A DNA stretch of 63,987 nt, counting the filler, from Dimargaris cristalligena (Eukaryota), in NCBI GenBank assembly GCA_003614675.1. It is 3 parts of 3 records of this genome, joined end to end, with 100 filler letters (N's around TTAATTAATTAA, not from the genome) between each part and the next. Parts side by side here need not be neighbours in the genome. Positions count along the whole stretch, not along the records: positions 1 to 23,204 come from ML002616.1; positions 23,305 to 46,507 come from ML002617.1; positions 46,608 to 63,987 come from ML002805.1. One strand, given 5' to 3'. Of the stretch, positions 4,031 to 49,280 are shown one piece after another (positions within the stretch are counted from its first letter, which is position 1; each line of letters begins with the position of its first letter). Made by a program: the position numbers and the translations under genes. Under the pieces are notes generated by a model, which was not told the DNA's origin, did no database searches, and was given only the letters and a program-made list of their open reading frames with translations.

Positions 4031-5600
4031 CTAGTGGGGAACTCGTGGAGGAGGTAAAATACGACGATATTTTACCGTGTGCAGCTGGTCTTCAAGAACA
4101 CTAGGAGGTAGCCAGAGAGACTCACCCACCTCCAAACCATGATCTTGGAGTAATTTTATAGCAACCGAGCGGAGGACTCGGATGGCCAACCTGGATTTGC
4201 CACTGACATCGTGGTGCGGGTACGCGAACCCGCCGGCTGTCCAATCTCTAAGATTGAAAATGTCCGTATCAATACGGTTACTAAAACTTCGACACTTTTC
4301 GTCAGCTTTTTTGAAACCCAGTGCGCCGGCATAACCGCAGTTGTACTTAAATTGATCAGCCAGTGAATCATTTTGTCCGGTATAGAATTCGTCAAATTCC
4401 CAACGCAATAAAGTCATATATGGTAATATATCTTGGAGAAAAATGCTATCGGGGCCAATATTGTCTACTAGTTTGCCCAACTTGTCCAGTTGGCCGGTAG
4501 TGGCAAGGGCCGCACCAATACTGACCATCACTTGTTCCGCGGCGACGTATATTGCTACTCTACGCCATTCTCCCATGAGATTGCCTCTGAGGAATTTGTG
4601 TATCCTTTTCTGCCCAAACTGCCCCCCAACGTCATCAATAGGTATGGCACGTAGGGACTGATGTCCCACTATATCAAACAGCCCAATTATATCGACCACA
4701 GACAATCCAGATAAAGAATATAACACAGGAAATAAAATACGCTTTTGATCGCTGGTGAGTCCAGTATAGTCCAAAAAGGCCCATTCCGCCTTGATGTCAG
4801 CCTGGCTTCCTTCGTCATATGGGTAAAGCCGGGGTATTCTATCCTCGGCGCTCTGACTACTGTATTCACAATCGTCCACATAAAAGCCACCGCTATTATA
4901 CCAAGCGGGGTACATAAGGGCATCCATTGGCTGCATCGGGAAGAGGGTTTGCAACTTTTCCAAGGTCATGGGAGCAGTACTAGATATCACGGTTTTGATG
5001 TCTTTCAGAACCTTTCTAGCCTTAGAAAAAAAGAGAATGGATACATGGCGACAACAACGTGCGTAAAATAGGTATTAGTCGATGGGCATGAGGGTATAGT
5101 TTAAACACAAGTCCCCTGACGGCGTGGGCGTAATTCAAAAGCGAGACATAAAATCGGAGGAACCAATTCGGATAATGGCTAACTGAGTGGCAGAGGAACC
5201 TGAAAAATATTTGAGATGCTATGAGTATACTTACCTGGAAAAGTTCCTGGGTGGTTCTGTCTTGATTAGTCAGCGCGTTAAAATATTTACTGACTGTGGA
5301 AACATGAAAGCGGTCATTCGCGGGCAAATGGCCCAAAACCTTATAAAAAAGTTCGGGTGGAAGGGAGTTTAGCGATTCAGTGGGCGTGGTTTGGGGTTCC
5401 CCAGTTTGGGAAGAAGTCTCGGCCGACGTATCGCCGTTTGTTTGGCTGTCTTCTCCCGCACCGTTAGGCTGGAATTCAACTGCATTATAAAATATATCAC
5501 CAGCTATTTCTTCATCTAACCCGATGTGTTGGGGGCAGCCAATAACAGTACAAGCCAGGGCCAGAACCAGCAAAGTGACGGGAACAAGGTACGACTTCAT
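4031..5600 (-). CDS. Secreted F-box protein (signal peptide + F-box + unknown C-terminal domain), ~451 aa; exons 5600-5235 and 5020-4031
   Basis: Signal peptide MKSYLVPVTLLVLALACTVIG; F-box motif LNSLPPELFYKVLGHLPANDRFHVSTVSKYFNAL. A phase-0 intron GTAAGT(5234)...ttttctAAG(5021) joins ORF 5022-5600 in frame to ORF 4031-4990. Confidence 0.8.
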
Positions 5601-6896
5601 TATCTACACACAGAAGTTGATGGAGGGAGTGGGATGTGAGTCAAAAATAGGGGAGTAGATGTGTTAGTATGAAGTCGAGGTGGAAATAAGTATATAATTT
5701 ATTGAGGGCAGAAGCCTAAAGAGAAGGTCCAGGTGCCAAGAGACATCCAAGGAGGACAGGGTCTTTGAGCAGCTCGCCCGTGTTGTCAGTAAATGCCAGA
5801 GGCCAGTGGCAGCCCACACCATGGCTAAACGATCAATGTCAAATATAACCACAGGCGTATCGCTTAATTTACATATGCCTTGCAACGGGGACACAGAGAG
5901 TAGTTCCACAAAAATAGGATGGGGGGGGGGGGGATATTTCCAAATCATATTCTTAAATTAGGTCGCTTATTCCCTGTGTTTAATCTATATAGTAAACTGA
6001 CCCTAATACAGCGCCGGCAAGGATGGGTTGCAGTTCTATAGATATAAATGGTATGGCCCTGCAGTGCGAATTATCTCTTCGGTGCCTTAGGTTCCCGACT
6101 GGTAGTGAAACTCCTCATCTAGGAATAGCCACCGCACGAAGGCCTCCAGCCACCCAAAAAGAAAATGATAAAGAGAGCGAGAGGATAAAAGTATAGCAGT
6201 TAACCAATCCACCACCAGCCAAATGTGGCGTTCGGCAGTTGGCCATCAGCCTCCTCCTTGGCCATTGCATATTTGCCAATGAACTTCCGATTAAGAATAC
6301 GCGACTGGGATTTTGGTGTCACTGTCCTACAGTTTCCCTATGGCCTCTTCATTAGGCTGTTTTATTTCAGATGCCTAGTCTGGAGGATATCTGCTCACCT
6401 GCCCCTCAATACTCCGCTTACCCCCCGCAAAGAATTGTGAGTATCCCCAGCACTCTAAATGGTGCACGGTAAAGGAAAAAACCATACCGGACTGTATGCC
6501 TCCCTCTTTCTGGACCGATAGTTAGGAACAACAGGGCGTTGACATGCTCCTAGCATACTAATAGACACTTATCCAATATGACATCTCTATTTATAATGTA
6601 TACTACCAAGCTTCGAGTATCCTTCTTTGCGTGTAATATTATTGAGGAGGCCCGTGGATAATTGTAAATGATCGATTAGGACTCAGGCCTACCGCTGGAG
6701 AAAAATAACCCAACCCCCTATCTATTTAATGCTGGTACAATAATTGCTGGAATATAAAGACGAAGCAATAAATCGGGAAGTAATGGAAGAAAGCAACTAC
6801 AGGACGGTGGGTGCCGCTAGGTGTGTTAGTTATATTGAACAGTAGAATCAGCATAGGACATTTTAGGTGGTTAACACGAGGGGCATGGGTTAACTA

Positions 6897-6960
6897 AATA
6901 CACCAGCGTAATTGGTAGAAACAGGATAGGATAAAATACCCTTCGGGATATATTGTTCAA
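6897..6960 (+). repeat. 64-bp dispersed repeat, copy 2 (copy 1 at 2963-3026)
   Basis: See copy 1; same orientation. Confidence 0.8.
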
Positions 6961-46672: not shown

Positions 46673-46745
46673 GCCTGTTTGGCTCAGTTGGCAGAGCGTC
46701 TGCCTAGTAAGCAGAAGGTCTTCAGTTCGATTCTGGAAATAGGCA
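46673..46745 (+). tRNA. tRNA-Thr (anticodon AGT), intronless
   Basis: Cloverleaf: acceptor GCCTGTT/AATAGGC, D arm GCTC-AGTTGGCA-GAGC, anticodon arm TCTGC-CT AGT AA-GCAGA, T arm TTCAG-TTCGATT-CTGGA; T-runs downstream (Pol III terminator). Confidence 0.96.
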
Positions 46746-47528
46746 ATTATTTTTATTTTTGTGGCATTGTTTGTAATGCATGGCGCTGGGGAGACTCTTT
46801 CCGTGCATAACCCTGCATAGTTCCACCTATTTTGCCGCATAATCGATGCTACGCATGAGAACATAAATTAGATAACAGCGTGTTTTTGGGGGTGTAGTTA
46901 TATTTACTAATATATATAGATGAGCTGGCCTTTACAGCTTTAATAGTGACTACACCAAGAGTCCCAGTGATTTGTATTCCTCGACGGTCTCAACTGTGGC
47001 TAATGAGTTGAGTGATAGTTTAATTTCCCAGTGGCCTTTGTACTCGTCTTCGGCTTAGGTTGGTCCATTGTAGCCTTTTCGAAAACGACTAGGCAAAATT
47101 GTAATACTATAGATTCCTCTGCCTGCGACCAAACTGTGGTTTCTTAGTGTGCTTCAATAAAGGGCGCTGTTGTTTTGGTCATATACCGCGGCTAATTTTG
47201 TATCGGTAGGGGTTACACAACCCAATCTGAGAGCCAAGCCAATATAATGGCGGAGACCACATTCGTTTCATTCCTCTCTTTGTAGATTTTTATCATGCCC
47301 CACACCGCAGGGCCTGAACCCCCTCCCCCCTCTCTATTTTCTCCCTCATTTATTATTTCCCTTTATTTTCCTATTTACATATTCAATATATTACATTCTA
47401 TTTATTTTTTCTCTCTGATTAGGCATTAAACACTCGTATAAAATTGCCTTGAACCAACTGACCATCTCCATTTAATCACACTCCGTATTTTTTATTTGTC
47501 TACAGTCTTAATTTTATATATCGCCCAT

Positions 47529-49280
47529 ATGAGGTTTGTTCTACTATTTATTACCGTGATTGTTGCGGGGCCAGTTACCACCACCATACACGGTTCCGTT
47601 GGGCAGACCTTACCTCCAGAATTGAATATTATGATTGTAAATTACTTGAAAACTTACGGAGAGCAGCTAGCTTTGGCGCAAGTCAATCGATTGTGGAAGG
47701 CGACCATTGCGAGCCTGCGCATCAAGGCAATTCAAAAGGTAAATTACGAACTATACGGACAATTATTTTCCGGGTTTATTTGGCCCTAGTTTGATATTAT
47801 TCAAGTCTAATTTGGAAGGGTCGGAGATGGAGAGTGGGGGAATGCGTGTGTGTGTTTTTGAATATCTCTTTCCTTTACAACAACTAATCGTTTGAATCTG
47901 GCCTAGTACTTGGTCCCTCCCTAGCTCTTTTTTTATTTTTTATGAAGTCAATTCGATTGGGTATTTTTTGTGCACACCAAAGTTCGTCGATATAATCAGT
48001 CTAAATACTCCCATCTTCTTTTTTGAATATTCATTTTATTTTTCAATTTAATGATTTTATTATTTAACCGCTTACCCTTCTAGGCCATAGAAGCCCTTCC
48101 CGAAATCCGAGCCCAACTAAGTAACGCCCCATCGGCCGCGGACGCGGACCAAGCTTTTGATCGGGTGTACCCTTTAATCGACGGGTTTATAGTTCCGGGG
48201 TTTGTCCACACGGAAATCTACTACAACCTGCAGGTGCTTGGTTACGATTATCGCCGGGGTGAGCTTAGACCCCGCGGGGCCGCTGGGAATCGTCCCCGGG
48301 GGCGAAGACCTGTTCCCGCCCCTCCCAACCTCGGCCTTGACCTTGACCCTGGTCTGACCCTACCGGACCTAGTTGCGGCCTTCCGACCCGCCTTAAAACA
48401 GTTGCACCAAAGTACAGAGTTATATGACATTGCCGGAATGGACGACACTATACTGGCCGCCTTTGTGCCTATTCTGCACCTCGCCCTATCTGGGAGCGAT
48501 AACGCGGCTAATTCGGACTCAGAGGCAGGGACAGGGACATGGACAGGTGAGAGTAAGGATACGGGTTCGCAACCGCTGTGGGAAATCACCCTAGGCCATC
48601 TGTTTCACCTGGTCGGAACCGAAGGGTTTAGCCAGGCCCTACGGCGTCGCTGGGCCACCCCTATCACCACCACCGCTACCGCCGCCATTGGGCTTCTCCC
48701 AGCCACACATATTGAGTTCGCTCGCCAGCTGCGTGAAGCCCGTTGGCAGGATATCCCCGATGACCCGGTCCGAACGATGATGGCGGACCGTGCCTATCTA
48801 CAGGAAACAGCCAACTGGTATCAGGGTGCGGTGCTATCGACGGTCCTGCTGGGGCTAGCTGCCCGGCCCCGCGTAGGGAATACTAATAAGAATACGAAGA
48901 CAGCGGAGGAGGAAGGGGGTAGTGGAGAGTACCATCATACGTGGTCCATGCTCGAGGCCGCCAGTCAGGCCCTGACCCAATGGCCCCGGGCCGCGGATTC
49001 ATCCGCTCTCTTTTTATTACAAGTAGGGGTCCACTACGGGAACGAGGAATTGGTCCGGGAGTTACTGGCCCAAGTGGCCCAAACACCGAAATTGGTCCCG
49101 CTGATGTATAGCTGTGCCCTTCAATCGGGGTGGACTACCATCGCCGACCGGTTGTTGGCCATCGATCCCCAGGTCAAGGGCATGGCAGGGTATTGTGACC
49201 GGCTGGCAATGAGGGCCATGCCCCTTCGCGTGGACACCAGTGGCCGTCTTGCCCTTCGGATTTATCGCGATTCCATGTAA
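47529..49280 (+). CDS. Secreted F-box protein (signal peptide + F-box + unknown helical C-terminal domain), ~468 aa; exons 47529-47738 and 48084-49280
   Basis: Signal peptide MRFVLLFITVIVAGPVTT; F-box TLPPELNIMIVNYLKTYGEQLALAQVNRLWKA. A phase-0 intron GTAAAT(47739)...cttctAG(48083) is in frame with ORF 48165-49280. Confidence 0.8.

Follow-up and report, generated by a model that had tools for sequence, protein, structure and literature searches.

A gene family private to Dimargaris cristalligena that joins a signal-like N-terminus to an F-box: candidate effectors of a fungus that parasitises fungi

Introduction

Why would a fungus place what looks like a secretion signal in front of an F-box, a domain for which we know of no role outside the cytoplasm or the nucleus? 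The question is raised by two genes of Dimargaris cristalligena (assembly GCA_003614675.1) that lie in the window, the whole stretch of DNA analysed here (63,987 nucleotides, filler included), in which parts of three genome records (ML002616.1, ML002617.1 and ML002805.1) are joined end to end. Gene 1, on the minus strand of the first part, and gene 2, on the plus strand of the third, are both predicted to encode a signal-like N-terminus, an F-box and a large C-terminal domain (C-domain), and a preliminary description had taken them for diverged paralogues from an expanded family of secreted effectors delivered into host cells. Similarity searches place gene 1 as an apparently unannotated member of a family of about 20 loci found in D. 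cristalligena only. This Dimargaris F-box family was undescribed in full-text literature searches, and the main text of the genome paper contains none of 'F-box', 'secret' and 'effector' (its supplements may list these genes).

Results

A family of about 20 loci in one species

A full HMMER search (phmmer) with the C-domain of gene 1 against 1.84 billion representative sequences returned 20 matches at E<=0.001. One of them, P0021 (2477 residues, E 1.4e-4), aligned over 11 short stretches and was set aside as spurious, being a long tandem-repeat protein. The remaining 19 clusters (E 8.7e-67 to 3e-5, 24-53% identity) all traced to D. cristalligena and no other organism, so that the expansion private to the parasite lineage that characterises exported F-box effectors was observed for every representative (n = 19/19). 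Most family members occur in two annotated assemblies, with the locus tags BJ085DRAFT and H4R33. P0013 and P0019 share a contig, and their locus tags are close together. No match had at least 50% identity over more than 69 residues, and the best long match was 46% identical; in the absence of a near-identical match, gene 1 itself appears to be unannotated.

A word-indexed protein search with the same C-domain recovered none of the 19 relatives found by HMMER, and with the family alignment it recovered P0018 only, indicating that its blanks for fast-evolving eukaryotic families are not readable as 'orphan'. Within the window, tblastn with 35 proteins found no further family copies; a weak match at 12740-12889 (E 7e-4) was rejected because it had no support from the family hidden Markov model (HMM). 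The expanded family of the preliminary description is borne out by gene 1 and its 19 clusters; the C-domain of gene 2 has no detectable similarity to it.

At one family locus, the annotated protein P0026 (528 residues) fuses a small signal-peptide protein, P0027 (126 residues), to the family member P0016, which therefore directly adjoins another putative secreted protein.

A conserved signal-like N-terminus

The N-termini were read by their layout, a cleavable Sec-type signal peptide being expected to have a basic n-region, a hydrophobic core of about 7-15 residues and small residues at -3 and -1, and this is the layout seen in the resulting table. In genes 1 and 2 alike, hydrophobicity peaks at the N-terminus of the protein, which is arranged in the manner of a signal peptide. 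That of gene 1 starts with Met-Lys, followed by an uncharged run (residues 3-23) with Val and Gly at -3 and -1 before Cys-Pro. It is homologous to the N-terminus of the family, which was present in at least one model of 11 of the 19 clusters, the remaining eight being fragments or 5'-truncated models. In the shared form, Met is followed by a basic residue and an uncharged run of 13-16 residues; next come, in most cases, a His, Gln or Arg, then a stretch of four with Gly or Ser as its last residue, and finally Arg/His-Pro. P0018 has Gln-Leu-Arg after the Met instead of the single basic residue.

The uncharged core measures 13-14 residues in 10 of the 11 relatives, where it is ended by His, Gln, Arg or Asn, and 16 in P0018; genes 1 and 2 have longer cores of 21 and 18 residues, respectively. 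A core of 13-16 residues with small residues at -3 and -1 is that of a textbook cleaved signal peptide, and is too short to span a membrane. The signal region is also the best-conserved part of the family proteins. Its mean pairwise identity among 11 sequences was 0.47, compared with 0.29 in the C-domain, 0.23 in the F-box, 0.22 in the linker and 0.13 in a variable stretch. Effector families typically pair a conserved signal peptide with a mature protein that diverges fast.

The linker that leads from the signal region to the F-box varies across the family and is mostly acidic. Behind the core, residues 23-80 of gene 1 include 11 Asp and Glu and no Lys or Arg. A basic residue ahead of the core and an acidic flank behind it predict an N-in, C-out orientation, which would place the F-box on the lumenal or exterior side. 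Cysteines number five in gene 1 and two in gene 2, with one and zero N-glycosylation sequons, respectively; such low counts are compatible with action in a cytoplasm. The layout first described for the two genes, a putative signal peptide followed by an F-box and a domain of no identified family, is real, and is conserved in the family of gene 1.

The F-box

Using the curated gathering cut-offs of Pfam as the standard, exon 1 of gene 1 carries an F-box by both available models, F-box-like PF12937 (36.5 bits; cut-off 24.3) and F-box PF00646 (29.6 bits; cut-off 20.5). Among the 12 family loci that retain an N-terminal region (gene 1 and 11 others), a Pfam cut-off was passed by two, gene 1 and P0003/P0023, the latter at 25 bits. 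Seven family loci bear the UniProt name 'F-box domain-containing protein', and in the family alignment most of these have an LPxE-type motif at the homologous place. A six-frame scan of the window for this motif gave eight matches in open reading frames (ORFs) of at least 40 residues, and an F-box context was found only for genes 1 and 2.

Exon 1 of gene 2 remained under both cut-offs, with 21.4 bits for PF12937 (cut-off 24.3, E 2.2e-4) and 18.5 bits for PF00646 (cut-off 20.5, E 1.8e-3), so the claim of an F-box in each gene passed the Pfam check for gene 1 and fell short of it for gene 2. BLASTP between the two exon-1 products nevertheless aligned their F-boxes (E 0.009), and we consider that gene 2 likely encodes an F-box even though it scores below the curated thresholds.

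The C-domains

Neither C-domain (329 residues in gene 1, 398 in gene 2) matched a Pfam family at E<=10, and the leucine-rich repeat (LRR) or ankyrin target domain that follows the F-box in previously known exported F-box proteins was found in neither gene. The gene 1 domain was modelled confidently with AlphaFold2 from a 19-row family alignment (predicted local distance difference test score, pLDDT, 81.0; predicted template modelling score, pTM, 0.85); the model is composed mostly of helices, with a small sheet predicted to be made by the conserved 'LAIRV' strand. A Foldseek search of the PDB with this model returned nothing at E<=0.001 (best E 0.46, template modelling score 0.20). An exhaustive structure alignment against 48,161 representative chains gave a single chain at Z>=5 (best Z 5.1, root-mean-square deviation 4.7 over 135 residues), and its rows were generic helical repeats with values below the chance level for helical proteins. 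The model of the gene 1 C-domain thus cannot be assigned to any known fold, and its fold is likely, though not proven, to be new.

Sequence searches of the PDB gave five matches for gene 1 (E 0.012-1.1), none of them meaningful, and zero for gene 2. The best ESM Atlas row for gene 1, at 0.78, was unnamed and was accompanied by HEPN-type rows at 0.77, while gene 2 drew weak ankyrin rows at 0.87-0.90 (recognition 1601); all of these lie below the reliability marks and serve as leads only. For the C-domain of gene 2, AlphaFold2 run on the single sequence gave an unusable model (pLDDT 40.1). Nine columns of the family C-domain are at least 90% conserved, all of them in its last third, and in one family subgroup a pair of Cys spaced 15 residues apart is conserved and might be disulfide-bonded.

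Gene models and the shared intron

Reading the sequence confirmed the coordinates of both gene models as first described (Table 1), with predicted spliced products of 451 residues for gene 1 and 468 for gene 2. The start of gene 1 is supported by an in-frame stop two codons upstream of its ATG (position 5600) and by the N-termini of paralogues at eight loci, which align to this position from residue 1, except that the longer model P0023 aligns from its residue 5 (tblastn E 6.5e-12 to 2.2e-4). Its splicing agrees with the spacing from the F-box to the motif FPMQPMD, which is 40 residues both in spliced gene 1 and in the annotated paralogue P0003, and with a guanine-plus-cytosine (GC) content of 0.42 in the intron vs 0.47-0.48 in the exons.

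The claim that the two genes share a phase-0 intron proved exact: in both it falls 43 codons past the L of LPPEL. An offset of 43 was also obtained for the paralogue P0035, whose junction is deduced from the start of the partial model P0014. The frame of gene 1 exon 1 stays open across the 214-nucleotide intron and stops at its last codons (a stop-to-stop ORF of 193 residues), so retention of the intron would yield a truncated protein comprising the signal peptide, the F-box and about 70 unrelated residues.

Table 1. Predicted features of gene 1 and gene 2, in window positions.
Feature	Position	Strand	Description
Gene 1 exon 1	5600..5235	minus	122 codons, encoding a signal-like N-terminus, an acidic linker and the F-box
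Gene 1 predicted signal peptide	5535..5600	minus	residues 1-22, heuristic reading
Gene 1 F-box	5256..5372	minus	residues 77-115, Pfam above cut-offs
Gene 1 intron	5234..5021	minus	214 nt, phase 0, GTAAGT..AG
Gene 1 exon 2	5020..4031	minus	329 codons + TAG; family-specific C-domain
Gene 2 exon 1	47529..47738	plus	70 codons; begins at the first ATG of the ORF
Gene 2 signal-like N-terminus	47529-47594	plus	residues 1-22
Gene 2 F-box-like stretch	47607-47726	plus	residues 27-66, Pfam sub-threshold
Gene 2 intron	47739..48083	plus	345 nt, phase 0, GTAAAT..AG, GC 0.34
Gene 2 exon 2	48084..49280	plus	398 codons + TAA; orphan C-domain

Relation of gene 2 to the gene 1 family

Exon 2 of gene 2 is 100% identical to residues 37-434 of P0036 and 99.7% identical to P0001, both of them hypothetical proteins of D. 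cristalligena. The published P0036 has the same exon junction as the gene 2 model (IKAIQK joined to AIEALPEIR), and the published P0001 consists of exon 2 only, starting exactly at 48084.

The preliminary description had linked the two genes as diverged paralogues through traces shared by their C-termini (YNC and YSC; DVSGKSRLAIR and DTSGRLALR), a link that none of the comparisons upheld. BLASTP of the two C-domains gave a best E of 1.3, and hhalign of the gene 1 family profile against gene 2 a probability of 0.18% (E 0.34). The family HMM aligned the F-box of gene 2 alone, at 7.0 bits, only just higher than the best shuffles (6.9, the top score of 2000, and 6.6). Smith-Waterman and semi-global alignments of gene 2 with six family members ranged from z -0.95 to 1.88 (200 shuffles each), inside the spread of the shuffled scores. 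What genes 1 and 2 have in common is their predicted architecture and the intron position, homology of the C-domains being not demonstrable by these comparisons. The matching intron position, found also in P0035, suggests common descent of the exon that encodes the putative signal peptide and F-box. Gene 2 is either a far-diverged branch of the family or a separate gene built to the same plan.

Alternatively, gene 2 could encode an ordinary cytosolic protein translated from the internal Met, as in P0036, the upstream stretch that reads as a signal peptide and LPPEL being an untranslated leader of coincidental likeness. Besides the published start of P0036, this explanation can call on the -3 position, which is a purine at the internal Met and a C at the first ATG, on the F-box scores under the cut-offs, and on the fact that gene 2 does not resemble the gene 1 family beyond the F-box. 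However, it is the upstream in-frame codons that supply LPPEL: with them Pfam gives 21.4 bits, and P0036, which starts at the internal Met and lacks LPPEL, has no Pfam F-box match at E<=1. As these codons complete the start of the F-box, the first ATG can be argued to be the true start. Furthermore, this ATG directly precedes the most hydrophobic segment of the protein, a CT-rich tract sits upstream of it, and the codon offset and phase of the intron equal those of gene 1 and P0035. No word beginning with 'transcriptom' appears in the main text of the genome paper, and we saw no indication that the P0036 start rests on transcripts. Altogether, we regard translation from the internal Met as somewhat unlikely.

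Other genes and features of the window

The ORF at 7489-8292 (+) lies 1.9 kb from gene 1 and is divergent to it, and its N-terminus (M-Q-P-H-Y-V-S-V...L-G-L-A-H...H-P-P) resembles the signal peptide of the family. It gave a weak match to the family HMM (E 0.035, single comparison) and to P0019 by tblastn (E 0.023), and its remainder is acidic and rich in Ser and Asp, with no Pfam match; it may encode another secreted protein that shares the signal-peptide module. Three further ORFs, at 24127-24657 (+), 40936-41295 (-) and 54600-55316 (-), have a short hydrophobic, signal-like segment after the first Met and no Pfam match above cut-off, and possibly encode small secreted proteins.

An ORF running off the start of the window (1-1452, +), separated by 2.6 kb from the end of gene 1 (its 3' side), carries the condensation domain of a nonribosomal peptide synthetase (PF00668, 117 bits). 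The surrounding genes are ordinary chromosomal ones, encoding ATP synthase subunit d, ribosomal protein P0, PHD and bromodomain-associated proteins and Chs5, together with a mitochondrial carrier, a family-25 glycosyltransferase and a dihydroxyacetone kinase. Runs of 44 N's were located at 23205-23248, 23261-23304, 46508-46551 and 46564-46607, forming two pairs with 12 bases within each; both pairs are at the part joins of the window, the second about 0.9 kb upstream of gene 2.

Discussion

A proposed role at the haustorial interface

Dimargaritales are described, in the portion of the source available to us, as parasites of other fungi that use an appressorium and a haustorium (PMC9866270). 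The host-delivered role first suggested for the two genes is reasonable for such a haustorial parasite, provided that the hosts are taken to be fungi and not plants or animals, as that same portion of the source describes them (PMC9866270). In the mechanism that we propose, the signal peptide would route the family protein into the secretory pathway of the parasite, and so hold its F-box apart from the Skp1 of the producing cell. Once set free at the haustorial interface, the protein would reach the cytoplasm of the host fungus, where its F-box would dock on the host Skp1/cullin and the family-specific domain would pick host proteins for ubiquitination. As both partners are fungi, the Skp1 of the host should closely resemble the parasite's, and export during translation would protect the parasite against its own product. 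Cleavage, secretion, host entry, Skp1 binding and substrate recruitment are all steps that we infer.

That the gene 1 family consists of haustorially delivered F-box effectors using the host Skp1-cullin-F-box (SCF) ubiquitin ligase is, in our judgement, plausible while still falling somewhat short of probable. A stronger form of the proposal holds that a secreted family of about 20 members plugs into a near-identical host Skp1 and that a new helical fold marks host proteins for destruction, which would make it the first fungal, and the first fungus-against-fungus, family of SCF-hijacking effectors, and its C-domain a new class of substrate-recognition domain; this form we hold to be possible but doubtful.

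The effectors of biotrophic mycoparasites are almost uncharted, and a private, expanded family that unites an export signal and a ubiquitin-ligase adaptor in one protein offers a concrete candidate for the control of a fungal host by its parasite. If the proposal is true, the C-domain would be a new SCF substrate-recognition module. Host and parasite Skp1 are both fungal, which makes the system open to yeast tests.

Evidence against the effector role and competing explanations

A number of results weigh against delivered F-box effectors. The reading of the signal peptides comes from a heuristic table of 13 N-termini, assembled by layout criteria rather than with a trained predictor, and we know of no host-entry motif for the Dimargaris lineage. 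Pfam F-box scores were sub-threshold in four of the 12 family loci (P0034, 17.8 bits; P0035, 17.2; P0024, 13.6; P0009, 12.0), and six of the 12 had no Pfam F-box match at E<=1; the domain is thus best described as ancestral to the gene 1 family and eroding in some members, as the alignment and these scores indicate. The C-domain of gene 1 falls outside the usual substrate modules of F-box proteins (LRR, WD40, Kelch), and its binding to proteins is only supposed. For gene 2, the F-box score is below the Pfam cut-offs, the first 33 codons are absent from both P0001 and P0036, the latter beginning at an internal Met, and a word-indexed protein search for relatives found its own protein only, the full HMMER search having covered gene 1 only. 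Since the same index missed the gene 1 family, this blank is weak evidence for gene 2 being without relatives.

The eroding domain invites a different explanation, in which the family members are secreted, wall or endoplasmic reticulum-lumen proteins with a relic F-box that does not bind Skp1, and the C-domain acts outside the host cytoplasm, for instance in adhesion, toxicity or as an enzyme at the haustorial interface. The six loci without a match and the four sub-threshold ones speak for such a relic, and the F-box region, with an identity of 0.23, is less conserved than either the C-domain (0.29) or the signal peptide (0.47). The strongest conserved motifs lie in the C-domain (the nine columns of its last third), and the Cys pair of one subgroup, 15 residues apart, could be joined by a disulfide. 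On the other hand, the F-boxes of gene 1 and P0003 are still above cut-offs and seven loci are named for the domain by UniProt; an F-box, as far as is generally known, has no role outside the cytoplasm and the nucleus, and the low counts of Cys and sequons are unlike those of typical extracellular fungal proteins. We consider a relic F-box an unlikely explanation of the family.

It is quite improbable that these are the parasite's own F-box proteins, held at a membrane by an uncleaved anchor or organelle-targeting signal with the F-box in the cytosol serving the parasite's own SCF, since, even though F-box proteins normally act in the cell that produces them and the uncharged run of gene 1 (21 residues) is enough for a membrane span, the core has 13-14 residues in 10 of 11 relatives and 16 in P0018, small residues occupy -3 and -1 before the conserved Arg/His-Pro, and the basic-before, acidic-after arrangement predicts a lumenal F-box.

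Comparison with known systems

The closest parallel to the delivered-effector reading of the Dimargaris family comes from an insect. According to the available portion of the source, the SSGP-71 proteins of the Hessian fly are secreted, combine an F-box with LRRs and bind host Skp proteins, and loss of the F-box has been reported for one SSGP-71 member (PMC4617103). SSGP-71 of Mayetiola destructor and the Dimargaris family thus both belong to a eukaryotic parasite and show an N-terminal F-box, secretion (predicted in the present case), a large, lineage-private expansion and loss of the F-box in some members. They differ in that SSGP-71 has LRRs and a plant host, whereas the Dimargaris proteins have a domain modelled as helical, with no Pfam or clear PDB match, and a fungal host; the two have no sequence relationship. 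The SSGP-71 family is also far larger than the approximately 20 Dimargaris loci.

Among bacteria, RipG7, a GALA protein of Ralstonia, binds Arabidopsis SKP1-like proteins, as stated in the portion of the same source available to us (PMC4617103). In the GALA proteins an F-box and a target-binding domain are exported to use the SCF of a eukaryotic host, which is the design proposed for the Dimargaris family. Legionella AnkB and Agrobacterium VirF are further bacterial F-box effectors. Unlike the Dimargaris proteins, the bacterial effectors are injected by type III or type IV systems, have no Sec signal peptide and carry LRR or ankyrin target domains. Their F-boxes are thought to have been acquired from eukaryotes, whereas Dimargaris would be a eukaryote redeploying a domain of its own.

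A candidate of Rhizophagus clarus, NLS_30765, is reported in the accessible part of its source as predicted to be secreted, with a PF12937 match (2.8e-07) and no others, and interference with host signalling was proposed for it (PMC4746824). It resembles the Dimargaris family in being fungal, predicted to be secreted and equipped with an F-box-like domain; however, it is a single candidate from a plant symbiont, known by prediction only, and that part of the source describes no family, conserved signal peptide or defined C-domain. Ordinary fungal cytosolic F-box proteins share with the Dimargaris family an F-box near the N-terminus and a larger C-terminal domain. They have no signal peptide, tend to be conserved from one species to the next and contain known domains such as WD40 or LRR. 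Taking these comparisons together, we regard the Dimargaris genes as an analogue, and not a member, of the SSGP-71 and GALA families.

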